Positions 594 through 12,689 of a stretch of DNA of 42,852 nucleotides are shown here, piece after piece. The translations under genes and the position numbers were made by a program. The stretch comes from Promethearchaeota archaeon (lineage in GTDB: Archaea > Asgardarchaeota > Lokiarchaeia > Sigyniarchaeales > SOKP01). Numbering within the stretch: position 1 is the stretch's first letter; each line of letters starts with the position of its first letter. The notes under the pieces were generated by a model. It was not told where the DNA came from, did not search any database, and was given only the letters and a program-made list of their open reading frames with translations. Location of the stretch: contig JBHLNT010000019.1 in the NCBI GenBank assembly GCA_048941265.1, positions 1 to 42,852 of the forward strand. Reading direction: 5' to 3'.

Positions 594-1331
594 ATGCTTT
601 TAAGTTTAGACCTGATGGTATTAGGAATCGTAACACTAGTCTATATATTTTTTTTGTCAGCAATTGGCATAAAAATAGGATTAATATATTTTAAAAATAA
701 GAAAAGAGTATATCTTTACACGGGTTTAAGTATTATGGGTACAGCGGTTCCTTGGTCGGGTGCGGCAATTTTTTTCATAAGTGAGGTTTTCTTTGACATA
801 ATTCCGCCTATGGAAATATTTTTTTTGTTTCACGGAGCGTTTATACCATTATTTTCAGTTTTATGGATATTAGCAATGTTAGATGTATTTGAGGTATACC
901 CAAAAAAAAGAACATGGATAAAAATTATCATGATTATTTTTTGGACGAGTCTTAATATTATATATTTAATATTTATCTTTACTGATACGACTCTTTTAGG
1001 AACTCTTACAGAAAATAATGTTATTGTTGATTATGCTCCATTTAACCAACTTTACCTTTCTATTGCCTTGATACAGGTCGTAATTACACTTACTCTATTA
1101 GGTGTCTATTCTTGGAAATCAGATGATCCAAAAATTCATTTAAGAGGTAAATTAATAATAATTAGTGTCTGCATTTTCGCATCTTCAGTTATCTTAGAAA
1201 TTCTAATGCCAATTATTCCTATGCTAATATTAGCTAGATTTTTAGTTATGTTTTATGCGGTATTCTATTACATGGGTTTTATAATGCCTAAATGGGTAGA
1301 GAATATGTTTTTAGGAGAAGATAAAACTTAA
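594..1331 (+). CDS. Stand-alone 7TM membrane protein (Loki-type, HisKA_7TM-like); paralogue of 20071 and 29250
   Basis: About 7 hydrophobic segments; shares TM2 Trp, SDDPKIxxRGK loop and C-terminal YxGFxxPxxV motif with two other ORFs in the window. Confidence 0.7.
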   Translation: MLLSLDLMVLGIVTLVYIFFLSAIGIKIGLIYFKNKKRVYLYTGLSIMGTAVPWSGAAIFFISEVFFDIIPPMEIFFLFHGAFIPLFSVLWILAMLDVFEVYPKKRTWIKIIMIIFWTSLNIIYLIFIFTDTTLLGTLTENNVIVDYAPFNQLYLSIALIQVVITLTLLGVYSWKSDDPKIHLRGKLIIISVCIFASSVILEILMPIIPMLILARFLVMFYAVFYYMGFIMPKWVENMFLGEDKT

Positions 1332-1351
1332 TTTTATGTTCTAAAAAATAT

Positions 1352-1410
1352 TTAGGAGGCAGTCCTATTGTCATTCTTTCACTATCTTTTATTGAAAGAA
1401 ATCATTCAAA
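1352..1410 (-). promoter_or_regulatory. SECIS-like element copy 1 (3' of the GDCCVxC gene) plus downstream hairpin
   Basis: Minus strand reads UUUG-AAU-GA-U-UUCUUUCA-AUAAAAGAUAG-UGAAAGAA-U-GA-CAA-UAGGA-CUGCC-UCCUA and starts directly after the TAA at 1411-1413. Confidence 0.85.
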
Positions 1411-1629
1411 TTATTCATTCGCAATTTTTTCTTGTATATGTAGTCACGGCACGTCACCATAAGTACAAAAGATTCAATCTCACCCATGGGGATTTTCATG
1501 ACCCCATATCGGTTTATTGCATCCTTGACAAGTAGTCCACATTAGTCATTGTTCTTTAGGTATTTTAAGGGTATTTATATATCCGCAATGAGGACATGTA
1601 ACATTACTTTCTGACTTGAAATCAATCAT
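1411..1629 (-). CDS. GDCCVxC-type small (seleno)protein, 72 aa, 4 predicted selenocysteines
   Basis: Missed by the ORF track. MIDFKSESNVTCPHCGYINTLKIPKEQULMWTTCQGCNKPIWGHENPHGUDUIFCTYGDVPULHIQEKIANE*. TGA at 1546-1548, 1480-1482, 1474-1476, 1444-1446. Matches the family pattern TCPxCG...C...CxxC...GDCCVFCSYGxVPC with TGA mostly at Cys positions; SECIS follows. Confidence 0.88.
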
Positions 1630-1713
1630 GTTAATCTCTTATAATGGTTTATGAATCTATAAACACTATACATCAGATTTATTATTAAAAATTTAGTATT
1701 TTAATATATAAGA

Positions 1714-1773
1714 TTAGGAGGCGGTCCTAATGTCAATCTTTCACTAAGATTTTTTGAAAGACGTCATCCAAAT
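1714..1773 (-). promoter_or_regulatory. SECIS-like element copy 2 plus downstream hairpin
   Basis: UUUG-GAU-GA-C-GUCUUUCA-AAAAAUCUUAG-UGAAAGAU-U-GA-CAU-UAGGA-CCGCC-UCCUA, starting within a few nt of the TAA at 1775-1777. Confidence 0.85.
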
Positions 1774-1774
1774 T

Positions 1775-2248
1775 TTATTTTAAAAAATAATGAGCAAAAT
1801 ATTCGTCATCCTTTCCGTATTTTTTAAGTAGAATAGTTTTAAATTTTCCAATATCTAATCTGTTTTTCACTTTCTCTCATCAACATCCTGAATCGGGTTG
1901 TAAATCAATTACACTATCAGCATATAAATTGAAACCTATATTATCTCGGAGCGGCATAAACTTTCTTAAATTCCCTTCATCGTCCAGACCATAGGGCATC
2001 AGTCCTACATCGTCATATATTTTGTTTTCTTCAGGATCCCAAAATAGTTGCAGATAATTGTGAATATAACCATCGAATATCGGGAAAATTGATTCTTTGG
2101 GATTTTCAAATACAAATTTGTCAACCATCGCTAAAGCTTCAACAAATGTCGCATTATCTTTAACAAAAACAACGAAATCTTTGCCTTTTGATAATCCGCT
2201 TAACGTCAAGCTTATTTTGAGTGTAATCTTTTTAATTTTAATAATCAC
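1775..2248 (-). CDS. Uncharacterised selenoprotein B with CUU motif (possible beta-grasp N-domain plus helical tail)
   Basis: The ORF track stops at TGA 1880-1882. A second TGA follows (1877-1879), then the frame continues EKVKNRLDIGKFKTILLKKYGKDDEYFAHYFLK-TAA, clearly homologous to the read-through tail of the upstream paralogue. Start uncertain (TTG 2281, GTG 2248 or ATT 2236). Confidence 0.85.
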
Positions 2249-2312
2249 CTTTGGTATATTAAAATTTTGAATATTTACCAAATTATTTATAAGTTTTAAT
2301 TATAAAGAATTT

Positions 2313-2370
2313 CAGGACGCAATCCTATTGTCAACCTTTCACAAGCATTTATTGAAAGATGTCATTCAAA
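2313..2370 (-). promoter_or_regulatory. SECIS-like element copy 3 plus downstream hairpin
   Basis: UUUG-AAU-GA-C-AUCUUUCA-AUAAAUGCUUG-UGAAAGGU-U-GA-CAA-UAGGA-UUGCG-UCCUG, directly after the TAA at 2371-2373. Confidence 0.85.
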
Positions 2371-2811
2371 TTATTTTATTTTAAATTTAAAGTAATGAGC
2401 AAAAGTTTCATGGTCTTTTCCGTATTTTTTCATAACAATCCGTTTAAATGTACCAAAATCTAATCTTTCTCGCATAACATCAGCTCATCAATCAGCATGA
2501 ACGGATAAAGTGATATTACTATCGGGATATAACTTTACATCAGCATTTTCCATTATAGGCATAAACTCTCTATTTGGACCATACGCATTAACCGCGCAAT
2601 CTTCATAAATCTTATTTTTTTCTGGATTCCAAATTAATTGAAGATAACTATGAATCAATCCCTTATATAAAGGAAAAATAGACTTTTCTGGATTTTCATA
2701 TATCTTTTTATCTATCTCACTTAATGCGTCAACAATAGTGCCCTCTTCATTAATTTTAACTTCAAAATCGATACCATTTGTAAGCGGTTTTTCCGGTGCG
2801 ATTATGGTCAA
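2371..2811 (-). CDS. Uncharacterised selenoprotein A with UU motif; paralogue of 1775..2248
   Basis: Tandem TGA at 2488-2490 and 2485-2487, then ADVMRERLDFGTFKRIVMKKYGKDHETFAHYFKFKIK-TAA. The first TGA aligns without gaps to a Cys (TGT) in the paralogue. Start may be ATA 2826 after GGTGGTGA. Confidence 0.85.
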
Positions 2812-2874
2812 TTTTATTCTCTTTATTTTTTCACCACCCTTGTATTTTAAATAAAATAGATTTTAAACAGATGA

Positions 2875-3264
2875 TTATTTAAGACCTTTATCCTTTAGGA
2901 GTTGAGGTAAATCCTTCTTTAATGCATAAGAAGTGGTATATTTTTTCTCTCCATCAACTAAAACACATTTGCTCCTTAAACCAAGCTGACGAGCCTCTTC
3001 AGAATTTAAGTTTTTTGTTTCATGTTTAATATACTTTATATAAGGTGTAAGTGCACTAAAAATAAGATTCATAAATTGCGACCACTCACAGGCGCATGCG
3101 TCGAGAGGCACATATATATCGACATTTAATTTATTTGGATCTAAAGGTTTTTTAATTACCTCATTAATTGAATCATTTTTGATATCAATGTCATCACTTG
3201 CACAGCAGGATGAGTTAGGTGTACAACAGGGGCTTTCAATTTTATTTACTTCTTTTTCTTCCAT
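2875..3264 (-). CDS. Cys-rich putative metal(loid)-binding protein, thioredoxin/ArsD-like
   Basis: N-terminal CC..CC (SPCCTPNSSCC), then VDIYVPLDACAC and a CVLVDGEKKY strand reminiscent of thioredoxin-fold/ArsD proteins; lies in an ars-type operon. Confidence 0.5.
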   Translation of the reverse strand: MEEKEVNKIESPCCTPNSSCCASDDIDIKNDSINEVIKKPLDPNKLNVDIYVPLDACACEWSQFMNLIFSALTPYIKYIKHETKNLNSEEARQLGLRSKCVLVDGEKKYTTSYALKKDLPQLLKDKGLK

Positions 3265-3325
3265 ATAATTTCACTTCCAATTTTGATTTAGATTTAATTA
3301 ACTTATTCCAATATTAAATTCCAAT

Positions 3326-3637
3326 TTAACCACAGCATGAGTTTTGTTGTGAATTTTTTGCTCTTTGACGAGCATCCCACAAACAACCACATCCCTTTTG
3401 TTCCTGCATAATAATAGCTTGAGTAGGGCAATTTCTAAAACAAGCACTACATTCAGTGCAAAGTTCTGGATGCTTAATTTCATATTTACCAGAATTAATT
3501 TGTTGAGGTAGCCCGAAAGGGCATACTTCACCACATAATCCACATCCAATGCATGCAGAATCACTAATAAAAATACGAGGTAGTTCAATTGTTTGAGGAG
3601 TGCAACATGAACTCTCATTTGCTTTTAATTCTGTCAT
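3326..3637 (-). CDS. hgcB: HgcB-like 2[4Fe-4S] ferredoxin
   Basis: Two CxxCxxCxxxCP motifs (CIGCGLCGEVCP, CTECSACFRNCP), a GCGC segment and a C-terminal CC; directly downstream of an hgcA-like gene. Confidence 0.72.
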   Translation of the reverse strand: MTELKANESSCCTPQTIELPRIFISDSACIGCGLCGEVCPFGLPQQINSGKYEIKHPELCTECSACFRNCPTQAIIMQEQKGCGCLWDARQRAKNSQQNSCCG

Positions 3638-3678
3638 ATTTATCTTTTTTATTGTTTTATTTTTTTTAATTCTTTATT

Positions 3679-5328
3679 TTAAATTATATAAAATATTATT
3701 CCAAAAGCTAAAAAAATTAAGCTTATAATTAGTAAAATTTTATTAATTCGCGAAAATAAGAGGTATTCTGCCTGAATCTCTCTAGGACTTGTTGACATTG
3801 TATATCCGCTAAAAGACATCGTTGAAAAAAAGGCGATCCAAAAATAAAAGCTCAAGTTCCAGAGAATAAAGAGAAATGATTGATATAATATCCAAGAAAT
3901 CCCTCCAAAAATTATTACGTTTAAAGTTCCAAAGAATAATCCTTTAATAATAAATCTTCTCGTGAAGTTTGAAATAGGTAATAAAAGAGCAATAAGCATA
4001 TTTGTTAAAATAATCCAAATGAATATTTCACCTATCCACCATAGCTTATTTGACCAATTCAATGCTAGCAGTAAAAATACTATTCCTATTAAAGGCAAAA
4101 GAAAAATTTTTCGCAAAAGAAATGTTGTATGCGTTATTCCTGCCCGGATTCGATGGGATATCGAGAATTTGGCAAGTTTCATATTATCTGGTTTTTGTTT
4201 CGGTCTTTCTTTAATATACTTCGTAATATCCTTAGACCATATTGGACCATAGACAATTTTAAATGGAAATTCTTCAGAATTTTTCGGCAATTGTGGTATA
4301 GCAACACCACCGGCAGAGAGTTGGGGGAGTATTAAGATCTTCTTGCGTGTAAGATTGTGAATTCCAGTTGCCTCAACAGCTTCAAGTAATTGTTTATTAC
4401 CAAAATCGTTTCCACGAGCAGCACACCATACATTAATGCCATTAGAATCAACACATAAAACCCATGCATCAATTCCTTTTAGACTACGCATTACTTTTAT
4501 ATATGTATATTCATAATTCGCTGTAACTATTATCGGTGAATATTCATCAGGATGTCCTGATTGATAGATTCCTGGTTCTACCGGAACACGGTCAATCTGA
4601 CCCGTGAACAAACACCGATAAATCCTTAATTGAGAGCGAATCCCTTTAAATCTTTTAAGGTTGGGGCGATAATATCCTGGAGTATCACCATCCTTTACTA
4701 ATTCTATGGCTTGTATGGAACCATGTTTCCAAGATTTTTGGGCATTAATTTTAAAGCCGATTGGTTCGATATAATTAATGAACCATTTTACGAGAAAGGT
4801 ACTTTTTAATCGGAGTCTGTGTAATTTCTTTTTAAACCACCACCGCTTTAATTTAAAAATTAGCTTCCAAAAGCCCGAAGGAATAGTTTCTGCGGCTAAT
4901 ATTAATCGCCCATCTGGTTTCAGTGAGTTCCAGGCATTTCGTAAAAATATTTGTTGCTCAAGAGGTCTAAGTTCAGATAACATAAAAGTACTTACGACTA
5001 TATCCTTTGAGCTCTTTTCAATCGGAAAATCCTTAAGTGATCCTATTTGATATAAAAGATTGACATTTGCCTCAGATGGATAATTTTGCATGGCATAATT
5101 AATCATTTGGAAGTTCTTATCAATTGCAACCACATTATTTCCTTTTATTGCCATTTTCTTCGCAAGAGTACCAGTGCCACAGCCTACCTCTAGTATGGAT
5201 TGGGAATCCTGAATACAATCTAATACCCACTCTTGAACATCAAGATTTACACCCTTAGTAAGAGCTGTAAATTTTGAATCATAAGTTTCTGGCTCTTCCT
5301 CCAATTTTCGCATATAAGTTACGGCCAT
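3679..5328 (-). CDS. hgcA: Fusion of a class I SAM methyltransferase (CpaM-like) with an HgcA-like corrinoid protein and C-terminal TM helices
   Basis: LEVGCGTG SAM motif I; VEPGIY..G.PD..SPIIVTANY and GINVWCAARG cap-helix-like motif (canonical N(V/I)WCA(A/G)GK); LILPQLSAGGV; about 5 C-terminal TM segments. Confidence 0.75.
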   Translation of the reverse strand: MAVTYMRKLEEEPETYDSKFTALTKGVNLDVQEWVLDCIQDSQSILEVGCGTGTLAKKMAIKGNNVVAIDKNFQMINYAMQNYPSEANVNLLYQIGSLKDFPIEKSSKDIVVSTFMLSELRPLEQQIFLRNAWNSLKPDGRLILAAETIPSGFWKLIFKLKRWWFKKKLHRLRLKSTFLVKWFINYIEPIGFKINAQKSWKHGSIQAIELVKDGDTPGYYRPNLKRFKGIRSQLRIYRCLFTGQIDRVPVEPGIYQSGHPDEYSPIIVTANYEYTYIKVMRSLKGIDAWVLCVDSNGINVWCAARGNDFGNKQLLEAVEATGIHNLTRKKILILPQLSAGGVAIPQLPKNSEEFPFKIVYGPIWSKDITKYIKERPKQKPDNMKLAKFSISHRIRAGITHTTFLLRKIFLLPLIGIVFLLLALNWSNKLWWIGEIFIWIILTNMLIALLLPISNFTRRFIIKGLFFGTLNVIIFGGISWILYQSFLFILWNLSFYFWIAFFSTMSFSGYTMSTSPREIQAEYLLFSRINKILLIISLIFLAFGIIFYII

Positions 5329-5353
5329 ATTTAATCCTCCAAATCTTTTTAGT

Positions 5354-6415
5354 TTATTCTGGGGGGTTCCAAAAGCCTCGCTTTTGAAGATATCTTCCTA
5401 AATAAACTATTGAAAGCATAACAGGAACTTCCCAGAACAATCCCATTGTAGTTCCTAATGCGGCAATCGATCCAATCCCATATATGGCAATCGCAGTAGC
5501 AATTGCAATTTCGAAATGACTTGAAGAGCCGATAATTACTGTGACAACAGCCTCTTTGTATTTAAGCTTAAAAAGCTTGGTAATAATCACATTATAGCTA
5601 ACAACGATTGCAAATCCAACCAGGAGAGGTATGCTAACTAAGAGTAAAAGTTCAGGATTTTTAAGTAAAACGTCTCCATTTAATGAAAAAAGGATAATCA
5701 ATGTTATTAGTAGTGCTACAACTGAAACTTTTCCTACCATAGGACGATAGGTGCCTTCAAACCATTCTTCCCCTTTTTTTTGTGTTAATAATCTTTTAGA
5801 TATTAATCCTAACGCTAAGGGGAGTCCTATAAAGAATATCAATGAAATTATTAATAAAGTTGTATCAATTGGAATATTTTGGATGCCAGTTAATAGAACA
5901 ACGATAGGAACATAAAGAAATATAATTGTTATGGTATTTAAACTGGTATTGGTGACATTTTGCTCTTGGTTTCCTCTAGCCATCCAACCCCATACAAGGA
6001 CCATTGCAGTACATGGTGAAGCAGAAAGTAAAATAATTGCTACTATTAACTGTTCATGACCAGCTAAAAAGATCCTTGCCATCATTAAACCAACAAAAGG
6101 GGCTACAATCCAATTAGAGATTAAGGTTAAAATTATCGGTTTTGGATTTTTCCCTAATTTTTTCAATTCAGATGCCTGGAGATTTAGCATTCCTGGATAC
6201 ATCATCAAGAATAGACATATCCCAATAGGAATAGAAATTTGGCCGATTGACCAGGAATTAATGGTTTCGCTAATTCCTGGAACAACTTGAGAAAGTACTA
6301 TTCCGGCAAGAATGCATAATGCCACCCATAGTGGTAAAAATTTACCAAAGAGACCTAATTCATGGGGTGTTCCTGCTTTATTTCTTATATCATTTTTAGC
6401 TTGTAGTTCACTCAT
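5354..6415 (-). CDS. acr3: Acr3-family arsenite efflux transporter
   Basis: PIGICLFLMMYP, NWIVAPF, ASPCTAMVLVW (conserved Cys), SSHFEIAIATA and EVPVML motifs; about 10 TM. Confidence 0.93.
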   Translation of the reverse strand: MSELQAKNDIRNKAGTPHELGLFGKFLPLWVALCILAGIVLSQVVPGISETINSWSIGQISIPIGICLFLMMYPGMLNLQASELKKLGKNPKPIILTLISNWIVAPFVGLMMARIFLAGHEQLIVAIILLSASPCTAMVLVWGWMARGNQEQNVTNTSLNTITIIFLYVPIVVLLTGIQNIPIDTTLLIISLIFFIGLPLALGLISKRLLTQKKGEEWFEGTYRPMVGKVSVVALLITLIILFSLNGDVLLKNPELLLLVSIPLLVGFAIVVSYNVIITKLFKLKYKEAVVTVIIGSSSHFEIAIATAIAIYGIGSIAALGTTMGLFWEVPVMLSIVYLGRYLQKRGFWNPPE

Positions 6416-6417
6416 TT

Positions 6418-7164
6418 TTAATTAACCTCATTTAATAGTAGTCTAGAAGTACTCATCCTTCTAGAATATTCATCTCTCATGTTATCGATGAATTGCCTTA
6501 AATTCTCATTAATTTGAGATAAATCTTCAGGAGGTATAGCATTTAGAAGTGATACTAGGTGATTGATTCCAGCAACTTCCTTATCGCATGTGTGACCAAA
6601 CCGTGGAGCGCGACATTCATGGCAGACACTTAAGGCAAAATTTTGAAGATTTTCTGTGTTAAAATCCTTATCTAAAAGAAATTTTGCCCCAGCTTCAGAG
6701 GAACCGCATAGTGAAGATCGCTTTACTATAATTTCTCTAAATTTACCATCTTCATCAATTTTAGGCTCATATATAGGTCTTCCGTAAAAAGTCGTAAATT
6801 CATCTACTTCTGGTATTCCCGTATCATTTTCTAGAGAACACATAGTTGGAGCATGAATGACTTGAGGATTTATTTTTCTCGCTTGAATTAATAGCCCTAC
6901 ACCGGGCAATACACCGAGTATTAACGGCTTCTGAAGTTCTGCTAGTTCTAAAATAAGATCAGGATGTCGAACGTAAGAAATGTATATATCGCAATCGGGG
7001 ATATTAAGTTTAAAATCATCATCCAGCATTAGATTAGAAGGTATTTCAGGAACCAGAATCCATACTACTTCAAAATTCTTCTTAATATTTTCAAAAGCTC
7101 TTTCACCGTACTTTCCATCTGACACTAATCCAACTTTTAAATTTTTAAATAAATGAGATGTCAT
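6418..7164 (-). CDS. DUF166-family protein
   Basis: GKYGERA, HPDL, CSL, RSSLCGS and CRA motifs typical of archaeal DUF166; first gene of the operon. Confidence 0.65.
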   Translation of the reverse strand: MTSHLFKNLKVGLVSDGKYGERAFENIKKNFEVVWILVPEIPSNLMLDDDFKLNIPDCDIYISYVRHPDLILELAELQKPLILGVLPGVGLLIQARKINPQVIHAPTMCSLENDTGIPEVDEFTTFYGRPIYEPKIDEDGKFREIIVKRSSLCGSSEAGAKFLLDKDFNTENLQNFALSVCHECRAPRFGHTCDKEVAGINHLVSLLNAIPPEDLSQINENLRQFIDNMRDEYSRRMSTSRLLLNEVN

Positions 7165-7234
7165 TATTCAATTTTCTTTAAAATATGGGTTAAAATATAT
7201 TTTTAAGGTTCAAGATATTAATAGAATTAATCAG

Positions 7235-7280
7235 ATTTATACTTATCGATTTGGACGTTAAATTTATATTTATCGATTTG
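7235..7280. promoter_or_regulatory. Candidate ArsR operator: 19-bp direct repeat
   Basis: ATTTATACTTATCGATTTG (7235-7253) and ATTTATATTTATCGATTTG (7262-7280), 18/19 identical, in the divergent promoter region. Confidence 0.45.
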
Positions 7281-7327
7281 TTATATATTATAGAGAATTA
7301 AAGATTTTTCAAATTTTTGTAAATATT

Positions 7328-7729
7328 GTGATAATCATGAATACTAAACGTAAGGCTGAACTAATGGATATGTTATGCTCATGTAATGGTGTATGCAGTT
7401 CTAGTAAACATTTTGAGGATTTACAATTTATAGGGCAAGAATTAAAGTTTGATGAAAATTACGTAAATATGGCTAACTTTGGAACTGCGATTTCGTCTAT
7501 AGAACGTCTAATCATTCTCAATTCGTTAAAAGAAAAAGATAGATGCGTTTGTGAACTCGAAGCGATCCTTGATAAGTCACAATCTACAATTTCTCATCAT
7601 CTTAGGAAGCTAGAGAGAGCAAATTTGATAATGAGTTGGAAAAAGGGTAGTTATACTTATTACGGATTAAAAAAGGAACAATTACAGTCATTTTTAGAAA
7701 TATTGAATAAGGTATTTAATTCTGTTTGA
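7328..7729 (+). CDS. arsR: ArsR/SmtB metal(loid)-sensing repressor
   Basis: RCVCEL...SQSTISHHLRKL wHTH (ELCVCDL-like As(III) site) plus N-terminal CSCNGVC; divergent from acr3. Likely start is ATG 7337. Confidence 0.9.
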   Translation: MIIMNTKRKAELMDMLCSCNGVCSSSKHFEDLQFIGQELKFDENYVNMANFGTAISSIERLIILNSLKEKDRCVCELEAILDKSQSTISHHLRKLERANLIMSWKKGSYTYYGLKKEQLQSFLEILNKVFNSV

Positions 7730-7963: not shown

Positions 7964-9229
7964 ATGACCGAATTGGAAAACAATAAGGAATTCTTAAGAT
8001 TTTTTCGAAGGTTTTTACCTTCAGAGATTCACATTGATAAGAATAATATCTTTTATCGAGATAAATATAATGAAATAATTAATTATATAAAACTTGTAGT
8101 TTCCAATTCTCAAGATTTAGAATTATTTAATTATTTAGAGCCAAAAGGTGGGCTTCTGGTAAATTTAAATCCTGGAACAGATATAATTGACTTTTTTAAA
8201 TTAATTTCGAGTAATTATTATTTAGAGTATTTTGAAATAGATTATACCGAAGTATTAAAAGCCCCAGAGGAGTTTTTTAATAATTTTAATGTTGTAGTAG
8301 ATTATTTTAGTACGGCAAGAAATGAGAAATCAGCGCATCCTGCTAAAAAAAAGCAAGATAATGAATCTAAAACGGATGAAAAAATTAGTAAGAAATTGAT
8401 TTTAATAAATCAGAAACCTAAGTTGAAAGAAATTCTCCAAAATAAAAGCCTTCTGGATAATTTTTTAAATTTATTTAATACTCAAAATAGAAAATTTGAT
8501 TTTATCCATAATGATACTATTCTTGTCTGGTTGAATTACAATTATGAAGAATTAGTCGAAAATTCAGAAAAAATATTTAATATATTTGATCTTTTTATTA
8601 AAGTTCCATTCTTAAATAGTGTGGAACGTAAGACATATCTCAAAGATTTTGCAGAAAAGAATTCCAGAATTGTTTTTGACATTAACGCGCTTGTAAATTA
8701 TACAGAAAATTGGGAAATAAATGATATAAAGCAAATATTAAAAATGGGTATTTTTAAGCATTTTTTAAATGCAGATCTTAACGATATTAGTAATGAAATT
8801 ACGGATACTTTAATTAATATCATAGAATCTGGTGAATATGTATTATCAACGGCGTTTATTAGCCCTGAAGTTAAAAATTCGATTGGTATCAAACAAGAGA
8901 CACAATTTAATATGAAGCGAGACGTGGCGGTTCTCGAGAATCAAAAAGATTCTATTGAAAAGAAAGATCAATATATAAATCAAATTAGAGATGAATCTAT
9001 TTCAGAATTCATGACAAATCAATTATATGAAAATGCCGCATCAAAAAATTATAGTGAATTGTTAATAGTTATTGACAAATTAAATAAAAGAGAAGCTCTT
9101 GAAGATAATGAGCGAAAATTATTGGCTAAATATCCCTTTATTCTTAATGATTCCCCAAATATGGCACAAATTAATTTGGAAAAAGCTAAAAAGCGCGTAG
9201 ATCTTATAAAGCGAGCTTTTGGTAAATAA
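7964..9229 (+). CDS. Degenerate AAA+-like protein
   Basis: PKGGLLVNLNPGTD (decayed Walker A region) and FDLFIKVPFLNSVERKTYL...LVNYTENWEINDIKQI resembling an AAA lid; no intact GKT or DE motif. Confidence 0.5.
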   Translation: MTELENNKEFLRFFRRFLPSEIHIDKNNIFYRDKYNEIINYIKLVVSNSQDLELFNYLEPKGGLLVNLNPGTDIIDFFKLISSNYYLEYFEIDYTEVLKAPEEFFNNFNVVVDYFSTARNEKSAHPAKKKQDNESKTDEKISKKLILINQKPKLKEILQNKSLLDNFLNLFNTQNRKFDFIHNDTILVWLNYNYEELVENSEKIFNIFDLFIKVPFLNSVERKTYLKDFAEKNSRIVFDINALVNYTENWEINDIKQILKMGIFKHFLNADLNDISNEITDTLINIIESGEYVLSTAFISPEVKNSIGIKQETQFNMKRDVAVLENQKDSIEKKDQYINQIRDESISEFMTNQLYENAASKNYSELLIVIDKLNKREALEDNERKLLAKYPFILNDSPNMAQINLEKAKKRVDLIKRAFGK

Positions 9230-9248: not shown

Positions 9249-12200
9249 ATGGCAACTCAATCCCTGAAAAATGATGTTTTTATTAGAAAAGTAATTTTAG
9301 AGAATTTTCTAAGTTTTAAAAGGGATGAGGTTGATTTAGATAATAAAAAATTTATACTTGTGATTGGCCCTAACTGGTCTGGCAAAACATCTATTTTTCA
9401 AGCAATTAAATTTGCATTGGGTAGCAATGAGAGAGATGAACGTTATAAAAAATGGTCTGACTTTATAAGGCATGGACAAAACCACGCTATGGTTGAGCTT
9501 AATATCCAAAAAGGTCAAGATTTAATAAAAATTAGAAGAATTGTCATAAGAGGTCAATCACCTCACTTCTTAATTAAGAAAAAAGATGATAAAGATTTTA
9601 GAAAAGCCCAAGCATTAGAGATTCAAAAGATAATTAATGATTTGAGTTATAATCCAGATAATCACTTCGCTTTCGTTAGTCAAGGTAAAATCGATGCTAT
9701 TAAAAATCTAAAACCCTCAGAATTATGCAATTTTCTTGAAGAGGGGATTGGATTAAAAAACTTAAGAGAAGAAATATTACAGCAGAAACATAGTGTATTG
9801 AATTTGAATAATGAATTGAAATCCTTAAAGAGTAAAAAAAATGTACTAAATATTAGTTTAGATCTCTTACAACCTAAGCTTGAAAGATTAGAACAAAAGC
9901 ATAAATTATTAGATGTGAAAAGGAAATATGAAGACGAGCTACTTTGGGCAAACCGACATAAGTTAAAGGAAGAGATTAAGTATCTCCAAAGAGATTATTC
10001 TAAAGTTAAAGTCGAAATAGATGAGATAAAAGTTAAAAAGGAGAAAATAGATAAGGAAGTTCAACGGCTAGAAACGCAGCTTTTTAAATCAGATCAAATT
10101 ATAAATTATCTTAATAGTAAATTAGGACAAAATCAACAAAAAAGAAAAGATTTAATTGCTGAAGTTAAAAAATGGCAAATAGACGAAATTAAGATTACTC
10201 AAGATTTAAAAAAGATATCTGAGCATATTAAGAGGGAAAAGAAAGAACTTAAAAATTATAAAAATCAAAAAAAGAGCTTAACTCAAGAAACTAAATTAAT
10301 TAAAGAAAAAGTAAATAATATTGAACTACATCTTGATGATTTGATTAAAGAACAAGATGATTTACAAAAAAAAATAAACCGAGATAAAGAATTTGTTGAA
10401 CAATTCAACCAAATAACTTCTGAAAAGGAGTCTAGACAAAAAGAAATTCAAGCAAATAAAAGTGAAATTAAAACAATAAATGATGAGATTAATCAAATTT
10501 TTCAAAGTCTTAAGGATATCGATCATAAATTAGAGCAAAATAAATGGTTTTTAGAAGATCGAACACAAAATCTATTAAAAAAGCTTGACAATGAGCATAG
10601 GAAAGTTAATTCAAACCAATATACAATTCAATTTAAAAAAGAACAATTAGAACAAGAACGATATAAGAAATTAAATAAATTCAATCATCTCCAAGAATCA
10701 CTTCGGAAAAGAAAAATCATTTATCCTTTTAAGTCAAACATAGAACTTCTAAAAGTAGAAATAAAAAAGCGAGATTTAAGAGTAAAGGGTCCAATAGTTG
10801 AATATCTTAAATATGATGATTCACTGAGCTATGCTATTGAATCCGTGTTAGGCGAACGATTACTATTTAGTTTTATTGCTGATGATTGGGAAACAATGAC
10901 CCTAATGCAAAGGTTAAGAGAAAGTACTAGAGCAATTTGCAATATCTATGTTCCTAGAAATATTAATGTGTCGAAATATCCACCAATTACAGCCAAGGGT
11001 ATTATTGGATATTTAATAGAATTAATTGATATTGTTGGAAATGATCAAGACATTAAAAAAGTACTATATTCTAAAGTGAGGAATTGTATGGTGGTTGAAG
11101 ATTATCGTAGCGGGGTAGAACTTTATAGAAATTTTAATTTTAAAGGTAAATGTGTGACGTTAAAAGGGAAGCAAATTACCTCATATAAATACGTATATGA
11201 AACCCCATATATAAAAACATTAAAAGGGTTATTAAGTGCAGGCACTCAGAGAGAACAAGCAAACAAATTAGAATCTGAAATAGAATCTTTAAATGAACAG
11301 ATTTTAGAATGCGATGTAAGGTTATCTAAATTAGATAAAGAACTGTTAGAGATATTAAGAAAGAAGGAAGCATATCACGATTTATCTTATATTTTTAGTC
11401 AAAAGCAGCGTCTAACATCAAAAAAGAATAAGCTTTATGAAGATCGGACTGTTTTAGAAAATAGAAATTCAGAATTTTTAAAGAATATGAAAGATTTGGA
11501 TCTTAAAATTAAAGAAATTCAATCTAAAACAAGTCCTGAATTTTTTAAATGGAATGATCGAATCAAAGAAATTCCTACGGAGCTTAAAGTGTATAATAAT
11601 GAAAAAAAGAAATGGAATCTAAAACTTAAAGAAAATGATCAGACTTTAAATGAGGTTGAAACCAAGATTAATACACAGAATCATACTATTTCTCTGCTTG
11701 ATCAGGAATTTAAGACAAAAGATGAGGATTTAAAAAAAAGACACAAAGAAGCATATTCTATTTACAATAAATTAGGAAAGTTAGAAGATAAGATCACTGA
11801 AATAGAAAAAAAAATATCGGATTTAACTGAAGAGAAGCTCAATATTCATGAAAAGAAAAGGACATTTGACATTAATAATATTCAAATAAACGTCCAACTT
11901 GAGCAAGAAAACATTCATTTAAATTATATAGGTCAAAAGTTAGAAGCGAAAAAGGAAGATTTAGAAAGAATTAATTCACAAATTGGGCCTTTAGTTTCAG
12001 AGAATAAAATTAAACTACGGTCAATAGAAGAAATAGAGATGGACATATTAAAAGTCGACAAAGACCTAATAAAGTTTTTAGATGTCGATGATGCTCTGCT
12101 AGTCGAGCGTGATCAAATACTAACCGGTTTAAAGGAAATAGCAAATAATCAAAAAGACCTGGAAAAGGATATTGGTGCTGCGATTAAAACCGAAAGTAAA

Positions 12201-12689
12201 ATGGAAGACACATATTACACTAAATTTGAACACGTACTTAACGATTTGAAATTGAAAATAAATCGGAAATTCAAATCTTCTGAAATTAAAGCCTATTGTT
12301 CACTTGAGTTGATGGGTGACTTTGAGAATTTAGGAGTAGAAATAAAAGCAGCGCTTTCAAAAAACCAATTACGATCATTTACAGCTTTGAGTGGAGGTCA
12401 AGTGTCTATGATCTCAATTTGTTTAATACTCTCTCTCCAAGAATTAAAGCCTTCTCCACTTTGTATGTTAGATGAAGCAGCAATGTTCCTCGATGATAAA
12501 AATTCGGAAGTGGCCTATCAAATGATCAAATCTACTCTCAAACAAAATCCAGATATCCAGATGATAATTTTCTTACCTAAATCGTCAAATGCTTTATATC
12601 TCCTTGCAGAAAAACTAATTGGTGTTGCAAGGACAGGTAAAGACGAAGTTTCTACAATATTTAAACCAAAAGTAATTCGAAAAGATTAA
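9249..12689 (+). CDS. smc: SMC-family ATPase, Smc5/6-like
   Basis: Walker A GPNWSGKT, Q-loop NPDNHFAFVSQ, two long coiled coils around a hinge (VKGPIVEYL), signature LSGGQ, Walker B SPLCMLDEAAMFLD. Confidence 0.9.
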   Translation: MATQSLKNDVFIRKVILENFLSFKRDEVDLDNKKFILVIGPNWSGKTSIFQAIKFALGSNERDERYKKWSDFIRHGQNHAMVELNIQKGQDLIKIRRIVIRGQSPHFLIKKKDDKDFRKAQALEIQKIINDLSYNPDNHFAFVSQGKIDAIKNLKPSELCNFLEEGIGLKNLREEILQQKHSVLNLNNELKSLKSKKNVLNISLDLLQPKLERLEQKHKLLDVKRKYEDELLWANRHKLKEEIKYLQRDYSKVKVEIDEIKVKKEKIDKEVQRLETQLFKSDQIINYLNSKLGQNQQKRKDLIAEVKKWQIDEIKITQDLKKISEHIKREKKELKNYKNQKKSLTQETKLIKEKVNNIELHLDDLIKEQDDLQKKINRDKEFVEQFNQITSEKESRQKEIQANKSEIKTINDEINQIFQSLKDIDHKLEQNKWFLEDRTQNLLKKLDNEHRKVNSNQYTIQFKKEQLEQERYKKLNKFNHLQESLRKRKIIYPFKSNIELLKVEIKKRDLRVKGPIVEYLKYDDSLSYAIESVLGERLLFSFIADDWETMTLMQRLRESTRAICNIYVPRNINVSKYPPITAKGIIGYLIELIDIVGNDQDIKKVLYSKVRNCMVVEDYRSGVELYRNFNFKGKCVTLKGKQITSYKYVYETPYIKTLKGLLSAGTQREQANKLESEIESLNEQILECDVRLSKLDKELLEILRKKEAYHDLSYIFSQKQRLTSKKNKLYEDRTVLENRNSEFLKNMKDLDLKIKEIQSKTSPEFFKWNDRIKEIPTELKVYNNEKKKWNLKLKENDQTLNEVETKINTQNHTISLLDQEFKTKDEDLKKRHKEAYSIYNKLGKLEDKITEIEKKISDLTEEKLNIHEKKRTFDINNIQINVQLEQENIHLNYIGQKLEAKKEDLERINSQIGPLVSENKIKLRSIEEIEMDILKVDKDLIKFLDVDDALLVERDQILTGLKEIANNQKDLEKDIGAAIKTESKMEDTYYTKFEHVLNDLKLKINRKFKSSEIKAYCSLELMGDFENLGVEIKAALSKNQLRSFTALSGGQVSMISICLILSLQELKPSPLCMLDEAAMFLDDKNSEVAYQMIKSTLKQNPDIQMIIFLPKSSNALYLLAEKLIGVARTGKDEVSTIFKPKVIRKD

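Follow-up and report, generated by a model that had tools for sequence, protein, structure and literature searches.

Vicinal selenocysteine proteins encoded in a candidate arsenite resistance operon of an Asgard archaeon

The DNA analysed here (hereafter the window) is 42,852 nucleotides (nt) long and corresponds to one whole contig (JBHLNT010000019.1, C159 in our numbering) of the genome of a Promethearchaeota archaeon (GCA_048941265.1; 5.0 Mb in 361 contigs, 91% complete). A preliminary description of the window, made from its sequence alone, had singled out a possible selenium-dependent arsenic/mercury system of Asgard origin at positions 1,352–7,729, and all the genes it listed, including a divergent arsR, are present in the sequence as claimed. 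The locus comprises a run of eight minus-strand genes, which encode in this order a DUF166 protein, an Acr3-type permease, a fusion between an S-adenosylmethionine (SAM) methyltransferase and an HgcA-like protein, an HgcB-like ferredoxin, a protein with a thioredoxin fold (the CxC protein), two related selenoproteins (A and B, encoded by selA and selB) and a protein of the GDCCVxC family, with arsR divergent from them on the plus strand. The intergenic gaps across the run are 2, 25, 41, 61, 63, 89 and 145 nt. The whole cluster, including the sole copy of Acr3, is single-copy in the genome, and its close homologues are annotated as Promethearchaeota, Lokiarchaeota, Hodarchaeota and Thorarchaeota, in keeping with the origin proposed.

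Read with translation table 11, the minus strand between 1.3 and 7.2 kb displays selA and selB as open reading frames (ORFs) of 107 and 133 amino acids (aa). Reading TGA as selenocysteine (Sec, U) lengthens them to 146 and 168 aa and opens a third ORF of 72 aa with four Sec residues, the GDCCVxC gene. More specifically, (i) selA (2371–2811, minus strand), delineated by TGA read-through, homologues and a fold model, carries TGAs at codons 108 and 109 (2485–2490), which gives Sec108–Sec109 in the context VHAD-UU-AD; (ii) selB (1775–2281, minus strand), a paralogue about 48% identical to selA, carries TGAs at codons 134 and 135 (1877–1882), which gives Cys133–Sec134–Sec135 in the context PDSGC-UU-EKV, a later codon being possibly its true start; (iii) the GDCCVxC gene (1411–1629, minus strand) carries Sec at codons 28, 50, 52 and 62. 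Altogether, eight in-frame TGAs (two, two and four) are found at the codons where the preliminary description had placed them, and all three genes stop at TAA.

The Sec reading of these three genes is strongly supported, and the genes, their Sec codons and the elements that follow them are real and conserved. A word-indexed protein search returned 202 relatives of selA, most of which are 107–118 aa long and hence end at the TGA pair; standard gene calling does hide the Sec part of the locus, as had been anticipated, since callers cut the proteins of this family (hereafter UU proteins) at residue 107–118. A few full-length database entries show WW at the TGA pair, as a gene call reading TGA as Trp would give. 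The 37 residues past the pair are conserved (ADxMKERLDFGxFKRIIMKKYGKxHExFAHYF), with F141 invariant and H139 and Y140 kept at 90% or more. When whole genomes were read through stops, the UU family was found in 134 of 400 genomes of the phylum and in 116 of 134 genomes of the window's own family. Among the matches listed (150 rows; 25 more exist), every UU homologue keeps the TGA–TGA pair and has two or three in-frame TGAs, as is also the case in five of five distant genomes from other families of the class. Contigs assembled from three DNA runs display strain substitutions, yet none at the TGAs among the matches listed.

The UU family falls into three subtypes, VHAD-UU-AD, PDxGC-UU-EKV and SSx-U-G-UU, and is narrowly distributed: a profile search of 1.84 billion representatives retrieved 56 clusters only, and scans of Pfam and NCBIfam gave no family for either UU protein. 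No Cys–Cys form was found in the Asgard genomes searched, the only non-Sec relatives seen being distant Cys-only proteins of 130–142 aa with 'GC-IT' at the site (P0146, P0159, P0164, P0170 and P0173), annotated as Bathyarchaeia/Bathyarchaeota. A prosaposin match in the deep profile search was rejected as a Cys-rich artefact. The third subtype, with three in-frame TGAs (L053 3223–3627, L055 4426–4830, L056 8001–8411 and L061 8016–8411 in our numbering of related loci), usually precedes a type-B copy in a tandem. In some UU tandems (L052, L054 and L065), the upstream gene has no SECIS (selenocysteine insertion sequence) element of its own, as if it shared the downstream one.

Each Sec gene of the window is trailed by a conserved element of about 66 nt, so that the SECIS-like element proposed for each of them in the preliminary description is borne out. 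On the minus strand, these elements lie at 2307–2372 (selA), 1709–1774 (selB) and 1347–1412 (GDCCVxC gene), the last one extending 5 nt past the start coordinate first given for the locus. A hidden Markov model built from the three of them finds an element directly 3' of the UU gene in 60 of 60 related loci. The structure that we propose, judged on 76 distinct sequences, comprises, in addition to an AUGA/GA core, helices I and II of 3 and 8 bp, respectively, an 11-nt loop rich in A and an extra hairpin of 5 bp; 94.2% of the cells of the alignment are paired, and 12 of the 16 pairs display compensatory change. None of 500 shuffles reaches this level of pairing, and slid controls are 43–54% paired. 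With the corresponding covariance model, the window elements score 78, 74.5 and 82 bits, respectively (range 74.5–82), and the rest of the genome contains only two matches, at 41 and 37.8 bits. Both sit just 3' of FrhD/MvhD-like selenoprotein genes beside HdrA and thus provide an internal positive control for the model. The SECIS families of Rfam gave no match in 1200–3400, which is not evidence against the elements because Asgard SECIS are not modelled in Rfam. Huang et al. describe the Asgard eSECIS as a 3'-located element with an AUGA_GA core and an apical loop rich in A (PMC11227280). Its core and loop agree with those of the window elements, which differ in having a conserved 5-bp hairpin directly 3' of helix I. 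This subtype, with its 76 aligned examples, should be useful for the question of how archaeal and eukaryotic SECIS elements are related. Note that a few SECIS-like elements in related loci follow no UU or GDCCVxC gene (L044 6645–6711, L049 5396–5461, L050 8966–9031 and L066 10295–10360): the L044 element lies 53 nt past a 223-aa Cys-rich ORF (GGCGFCGTCGGGSG...RCC) that has no in-frame TGA, and no upstream ORF was recognised for the other three.

The Sec machinery, whose presence in the same genome had been put forward as a check, is partly accounted for. In the window's genome, SelD has a single in-frame TGA, SepSecS is represented by its C-terminal half, at the end of a contig, and SelB scores over its cut-off; PSTK and tRNA-Sec have counterparts in congeners only. 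In the window's genome, PSTK gives weak matches only, and ARAGORN, run on the whole genome, reports 11–12 tRNAs in total and no tRNA-Sec. The Rfam tRNA-Sec matches obtained there were discarded as ordinary tRNAs, some with introns. A full-length PSTK-like gene is present in eight of nine congeners, and one congener contains a tRNA-Sec-like gene with a UCA anticodon (44.2 bits, the gathering score being 47).

The regulator and the pump of the locus are of arsenic type. ArsR (7328–7729, plus strand) is an ArsR/SmtB metalloregulator (NF033788, 70.2 bits for a cut-off of 55) whose HTH_5 winged-helix domain is over its cut-off (PF01022, 60.2 bits), with an N-terminal CSCxxxC and a CVC motif (DRCVCELEAIL), a putative As(III) site. 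The region between arsR and the DUF166 gene contains a two-copy 19-nt direct repeat (ATTTATAYTTATCGATTTG; 7235–7280), with exact copies at 7235–7253 and 7262–7280, each containing ATCGAT. Allowing for up to three mismatches, the repeat has four matches in the window for 0.32 expected, and it is a candidate ArsR operator; a sigma-70 promoter/terminator scan is uninformative, the host being archaeal. The minus-strand run is headed by the DUF166 gene (6418–7164; PF02593, 92.1 bits for a cut-off of 24.4), whose product scores 40 bits against NF041372 (DfsP), far under the cut-off of 200. Next comes the Acr3 gene (5354–6415, minus strand), the product of which misses the TIGR00832 equivalog cut-off by 0.4 bit (282.4 for 282.8) with 325 of 327 positions covered and belongs to Pfam SBF (PF01758, 133.1 bits).

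As in classical ars operons, a divergent ArsR/SmtB regulator with a CVC motif is thus found together with an Acr3 permease and small Cys-rich accessory proteins. Unlike these operons (arsR-acr3/arsB-arsC, some with arsD/arsA), the cluster contains no arsC, arsA or arsD; its accessories are the CxC protein and the di- and tetra-Sec proteins with their SECIS elements, and a corrinoid methylase is inserted in it. No arsC was found anywhere in the window. The genome holds five genes of the low-molecular-weight (LMW) phosphatase/ArsC type outside the cluster, and no Grx-type ArsC was found in it. Three LMW-phosphatase/ArsC-type genes lie in tandem at C211:27013–28499, away from the ars operon, and in two related loci an ORF with a CX5R motif (LMW-phosphatase/ArsC-like by eye) comes after the UU gene.

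To see which genes travel together, we relied on 60 UU loci from 52 genomes, which were hand-picked to span genera after some co-locations were known and are therefore not a random sample. Within 8 kb of UU, 46 loci have ArsR, 43 have Acr3 and 40 have the CxC protein; Acr3 lies upstream, on the strand of UU, in 39, and the CxC gene is at most 400 nt upstream of UU in 29. The other neighbours are less frequent: HgcB-like protein in 15 loci, methyltransferase::HgcA-like fusion in 14, DUF166 protein in 12 and GDCCVxC protein in two; Acr3 is found without the fusion in 30 of the 60. The selenoprotein genes therefore do co-occur in relatives with acr3/arsR and with the HgcA-like gene, and the order acr3–fusion–hgcB–CxC–UU recurs in several genera. 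Among the matches listed, 42 of 150 UU rows are close to a fusion, and 86 genomes have both a full-length fusion and UU, with the two at most 6 kb apart in 38 of them. Conversely, 12 fusion loci away from UU all contain the HgcB-like gene, with ArsR in five and Acr3 in one, and none contains UU or a SECIS element. The main partners of the UU family are thus acr3/arsR and the CxC gene, the methyltransferase::HgcA-like/HgcB-like pair being an optional insert between acr3 and the CxC gene. These counts fit a conserved operon core made up of arsR, acr3, the CxC protein and one or more UU selenoproteins. Two UU loci that stand alone (L088 7227–7853 and L092 7236–7862) have a 208-aa SAM methyltransferase-like ORF convergent with UU.

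The CxC protein (129 aa, Cys-rich; 2875–3264, minus strand) matches no Pfam or NCBIfam family, and its assignment comes from its predicted structure, which consists of a thioredoxin-fold core (predicted local distance difference test score, pLDDT, above 90) and a disordered N-terminal tail with two CC pairs. A structural scan gave a Z-score of 9.7 (root-mean-square deviation, rmsd, of 2.1 over 78 aligned residues), and all 50 top rows have a thioredoxin fold; with Foldseek, the best match has a probability of 1.0 and an E-value of 5e-3. Two Cys residues are invariant, C57 and C59 (ACACEW), so that the protein lacks the CxxC redox motif. The thioredoxin fold is shared by ArsD, an As(III) chaperone with vicinal Cys residues, and no match to Pfam ArsD was obtained at E-values up to 0.1 or 1. 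In ten loci (L049, L050, L054, L065, L069, L073, L078, L084, L085 and L103), a second copy of the CxC gene is found directly downstream of a small second ArsR-like gene (33–42% identical), a few kb from UU; the CxC protein is thus ArsR-linked in two arrangements.

The predicted model of the UU protein has a pLDDT of 91.9 and a predicted template modelling score (pTM) of 0.88. Foldseek found no match in the PDB at an E-value of 0.001 or better for this model, nor for that of the CxC protein, and the top weak rows for UU (E-values of 0.3 or more) are a MoaD-related protein, Urm1, SAMP1 and CysO. A wide structural scan retrieved, over residues 1–110 of the model, CysO (Z 6.2, rmsd 3.7, 80 aligned residues), a MoaD-related protein (Z 5.6) and SAMP1 (Z 5.2). 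The model therefore reads as a beta-grasp-like domain, the last strand of which ends at the Sec pair and is followed by a helical tail, the match being middling (Z 6.2 or less). The sulfur carriers MoaD, ThiS, CysO, Urm1 and SAMP provide the best structural rows at these middling scores and, because the whole carrier aligns to residues 1–110 of UU, its C-terminus falls at the Sec pair. In contrast to these carriers, UU has no C-terminal Gly-Gly, the Sec-Sec pair being followed by a 37-residue helical tail; there is no sequence similarity between them, and no E1-like gene lies close by. Note that transcobalamin, intrinsic factor and haptocorrin, through their cobalamin-binding beta domains, reach the same level as the sulfur carriers (Z 5.4–5.6 over residues 1–107). 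This likeness probably reflects only a shared beta-grasp-like arrangement, and we draw no link to cobalamin from it, though a corrinoid enzyme adjoins.

That enzyme, the 549-aa fusion (3679–5328, minus strand), is predicted to contain a class I SAM methyltransferase domain similar to CpaM (residues 1–210), an HgcA-like corrinoid domain (residues 235–380) and a C-terminal membrane domain (residues ~400–549); a hydropathy scan places hydrophobic segments over residues 401–549, where HgcA would have about five helices. It stays under the cut-offs of NF043040 (CpaM; 138.8 bits for 180, residues 4–209), NF040863 (HgcA; 171.9 for 275) and NF043039 (HgcAB-like; 173.9 for 285), and exceeds that of PF03599 (55.2 for 24.8), which identifies a CdhD-like corrinoid-binding domain. 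The fusion aligns with the cap-helix region of the large CFeSP (corrinoid iron–sulfur protein) subunit, where it displays the motif NVWCAARG; all 27 orthologues examined, the most distant being 29% identical, conserve both G(I/E)NVWC(A/G)ARG and SAM motif I. The canonical HgcA cap-helix motif is N(V/I)WCA(A/G)GK. The HgcB-like 2x[4Fe-4S] ferredoxin (3326–3637, minus strand) has the two expected CX2CX2CX3CP motifs (CIGCGLCGEVCP and CTECSACFRNCP), an N-terminal SSCC and a C-terminal SCCG, and scores 53.5 bits against NF040864 (HgcB) for a cut-off of 99.

A close known counterpart of this pair is HgcAB, with its ArsR-like control in Pseudodesulfovibrio mercurii ND132. In HgcAB, too, a cap-helix Cys is found in a CdhD-like corrinoid domain, the C-terminus is a membrane domain (predicted for the fusion), and an adjacent 2x[4Fe-4S] ferredoxin has a CC end. 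HgcAB makes methyl-cob(III)alamin from SAM, which is thus its methyl donor, and the C-terminal Cys pair of HgcB matters (PMC11588087); in a bacterium, hgcAB is linked to and controlled by an arsenic-responsive ArsR (10.1101/2022.10.17.512643), and ars genes close to hgcAB have been reported (PMC10349881). The proteins of the window differ from HgcAB by the SAM methyltransferase fused N-terminally, by the NVWCAARG motif and by scores under the equivalog cut-offs. Most bacterial HgcA proteins contain Sec, in a CU motif (10.1101/2022.07.06.499078), whereas selenium here is carried by separate neighbouring proteins and not by the HgcA-like protein itself. The NCBIfam entries CpaM (NF043040) and HgcAB-like fusion (NF043039) together cover the same three domains (methyltransferase, HgcA-like and HgcB-like), which are joined here as a methyltransferase::HgcA-like fusion plus a free HgcB-like protein; a literature search found no paper under the name CpaM. 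A fused HgcAB-like protein of Pyrococcus did not methylate mercury, and the Asgard HgcA-like proteins cluster with this fused clade, whose tested member is inactive on mercury (PMC10083202). That a SAM methyltransferase is fused N-terminally to an HgcA-like protein supports, independently and on genomic grounds, the view that enzymes of this class take their methyl group from SAM, and the presence of the fusion in ars operons is relevant to the question of which function HgcAB-like enzymes evolved for.

The GDCCVxC protein, which also holds CPHC and CQGC pairs, scores 50.7 bits against NF041374 when U is read as C (cut-off 40) and 36.9 bits with the stops unscored. It thus belongs to the 'GOS_B'/GDCCVxC family, with four Sec residues where a review gives one (PMC13188914). 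Of 135 genomes in the window's family, 20 contain it; 19 of the 22 matches there have four TGAs, and three genomes share identical Sec positions. Its gene is beside UU in four of the 20 genomes that hold it (G000, the window's genome, G174, G155 and G165 in our numbering) and beside a MerA-like gene in four of ten other loci examined, for instance at L109 3437–5201 (G264), L111 810–5180 (G229) and L114 5004–9358 (G227). The MerA-like protein, a pyridine-nucleotide disulfide reductase, displays TCVNVGCVPTK and a C-terminal CC (SCCIE), and two of these four loci also have a heavy-metal P-type ATPase. GDCCVxC is therefore an occasional passenger of the ars operon that is found elsewhere in MerA clusters, and the latter loci may represent a selenium-assisted mercury detoxification cluster in Asgard archaea.

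Judging from gene content and conservation, we regard the locus, with a probability of about 0.5, as a single ArsR-controlled arsenite resistance operon of a Lokiarchaeia-type Asgard archaeon, in which Sec-containing binders of soft metal(loid)s have been recruited and to which a methylation module is optionally added. In such an operon, As(III) would release ArsR from the candidate repeats of the divergent promoter, and Acr3 would pump As(III) outward. Each UU protein would offer three putative soft ligands, Cys72, Sec108 and Sec109 in A, Cys133, Sec134 and Sec135 in B, and the U-G-U-U residues in the third subtype; such a Cys/Sec triad would suit trigonal As(III), so that the UU proteins might trap cytoplasmic As(III) or Sb(III) and then buffer it or hand it over. 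The CxC partner could swap the metalloid with the diselenol or resolve Se–Se and Se–S bonds. Where the optional module is present, the fused SAM methyltransferase would methylate the cob(I)alamin of the HgcA-like domain, and the HgcB-like protein would supply low-potential electrons and present the substrate on its CC tail; the methyl group would then pass to a soft metal(loid), of which As(III) is the likeliest, so as to detoxify it alongside export. Because the substrate of Acr3 is As(III) rather than its methylated forms, we find it likelier that export and methylation run in parallel under ArsR than that they form successive steps of a relay. The four-Sec GDCCVxC protein would act as a general soft-metal binder, also used by the MerA-type clusters of relatives. 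One may go further and see in UU a new class of ubiquitin-like (beta-grasp) carriers, in which a diselenol 'hand' replaces the cargo-bearing C-terminal glycine and ferries arsenic or another soft metalloid between the CxC partner, Acr3 and the methylase. We hold this extension to be rather unlikely; if true, metalloids would be trafficked by a selenium-dependent system peculiar to the lineage of archaea that is nearest to eukaryotes.

Several observations weigh against the arsenite operon. Neither ars nor hgc genes accompany UU in ten of the 60 loci, so that arsenic need not be what the UU protein acts on. Diselenols also bind Hg(II) and other soft metals, and GDCCVxC genes stand beside MerA-like genes elsewhere. 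The beta-grasp match of UU is middling; the HgcA and HgcB scores are under their cut-offs, and the Pyrococcus relative of the fusion is inactive on mercury. Finally, PSTK beyond weak matches and tRNA-Sec were not found in the window's genome, which is 91% complete, and no RNA run is listed as holding the stretch.

The most radical alternative, namely that the TGAs are true stops or assembly errors, that the SECIS elements are terminators and that no selenoprotein is encoded here, could call on the gene callers that end at the TGAs, on the 107–118-aa length of most database entries and on the gaps in the Sec machinery of the window's genome. Set against it are the conserved TGA positions, the coding conservation past them, the covariation of the SECIS elements, the FrhD/HdrA positive control and the strain variants that spare the TGAs among the matches listed; this alternative is close to refuted, and we grant it a negligible probability. 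A different objection concerns the way in which the parts work together. The preliminary description had envisaged a module with Sec-rich carriers that capture or deliver the metal(loid), a relay that methylates it and Acr3 as its exporter; in its strict form, this amounts to one obligate chain in which the carriers feed the methylase, Acr3 removes the product and all eight genes act together as a single machine. In the window, all the parts of this relay are co-oriented with short gaps, their order is found in several genera and, wherever coordinates were compared by eye among the 38 of 86 genomes mentioned above, UU lies downstream of the fusion on the same strand. But the modules are separable: Acr3 accompanies UU far more often than the fusion does (43 versus 14 of 60 loci) and is without it in half of the loci, all 12 separate loci of the fusion/HgcB pair lack both UU and SECIS, and GDCCVxC is mostly elsewhere. 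As Acr3 is moreover known as an exporter of As(III) and not of methylated species, the single relay is only partly supported and seems to us improbable as an obligate chain.

The same gene pairs can also be read in terms of redox chemistry. If UU and CxC formed a selenium-dependent reductase couple acting on arsenate, another oxyanion or a disulfide, with the diselenol as reductant and CxC recycling the Se–Se bond, this would account for the CxC gene lying directly upstream of UU in 29 of 60 loci, for its thioredoxin fold with a Cys pair at the position of the redox motif and for the missing arsC; moreover, vicinal Sec pairs are redox-active in known selenoenzymes. We nevertheless consider this couple doubtful, since CxC differs from the CxxC of redox thioredoxins, the genome has its five LMW-phosphatase/ArsC-type genes elsewhere and, in two relatives, the CX5R ORF after UU makes a further reductase unnecessary. 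Finally, a mercury-centred cluster, in which the HgcA-like/HgcB-like pair would methylate Hg(II) bound and delivered by the Sec proteins, would be in line with HgcA and HgcB as top family matches, with the conserved cap-helix Cys, with the MerA-like genes and heavy-metal ATPases near GDCCVxC in relatives and with the CU motif of most bacterial HgcA proteins (10.1101/2022.07.06.499078). It is difficult to reconcile with an arsenic-type regulator and pump, with HgcA/HgcB scores under the cut-offs, with NVWCAARG instead of the canonical motif and with the clustering of Asgard HgcA-like proteins with the fused clade, the tested protein of which is inactive on mercury (PMC10083202). In addition, no MerA orthologue was found in the window's genome, the best match being 35% identical, and a role centred on mercury is in our view quite unlikely.

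Some components of the arsenite operon that we favour have known parallels: bacterial Sec proteins in metal and organometal biochemistry and Asgard selenoproteins with eSECIS are both already known. The SAO system, HgcA(CU), ArsM_AhpD_UU, ArsM_DUF2284_UU and GDCCVxC/'GOS_B' likewise have Sec, often vicinal, in organometallic or metal-resistance settings (PMC13188914), and NCBIfam contains families whose names designate bacterial arsenite-methyltransferase selenoproteins with 'UU'. Those bacterial proteins carry a bacterial SECIS inside the coding region, whereas the host here is archaeal and the SECIS is eukaryote-like and located in the 3' untranslated region; furthermore, the UU family matches none of the bacterial families. 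The known Asgard selenoproteins are SelD, FrhA, HdrA, FrhD, Prx-like, AhpF-N and DsbA-like (seven families in a 2024 survey, for eleven in all archaea in a 2026 review), and neither UU nor GDCCVxC is among them. No mention of the UU family, of an archaeal four-Sec GDCCVxC or of selenoproteins in an archaeal ars operon was found in the literature (main texts; supplementary tables could list them), and no description of the combination as a whole turned up either. The UU beta-grasp family and the four-Sec GDCCVxC would thus add two selenoprotein families to the Asgard selenoproteome, and the locus is the first archaeal case found of selenoproteins inside an arsenic resistance operon, in parallel with the Sec-containing ArsM, HgcA and SAO proteins of bacteria. 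The UU family was missed because homology-based selenoprotein searches need known families or Cys homologues, and because all UU homologues in the Asgard genomes searched carry TGAs, so that methods based on Sec/Cys pairs fail.

Beyond arsR, the window encodes a 421-aa protein without a family (7964–9229), followed by a 1146-aa coiled-coil ATPase, SMC/Rad50-like by eye (9249–12689). The 421-aa gene adjoins arsR in 26 of the 60 related loci, which suggests that the ars island occupies a conserved chromosomal site.

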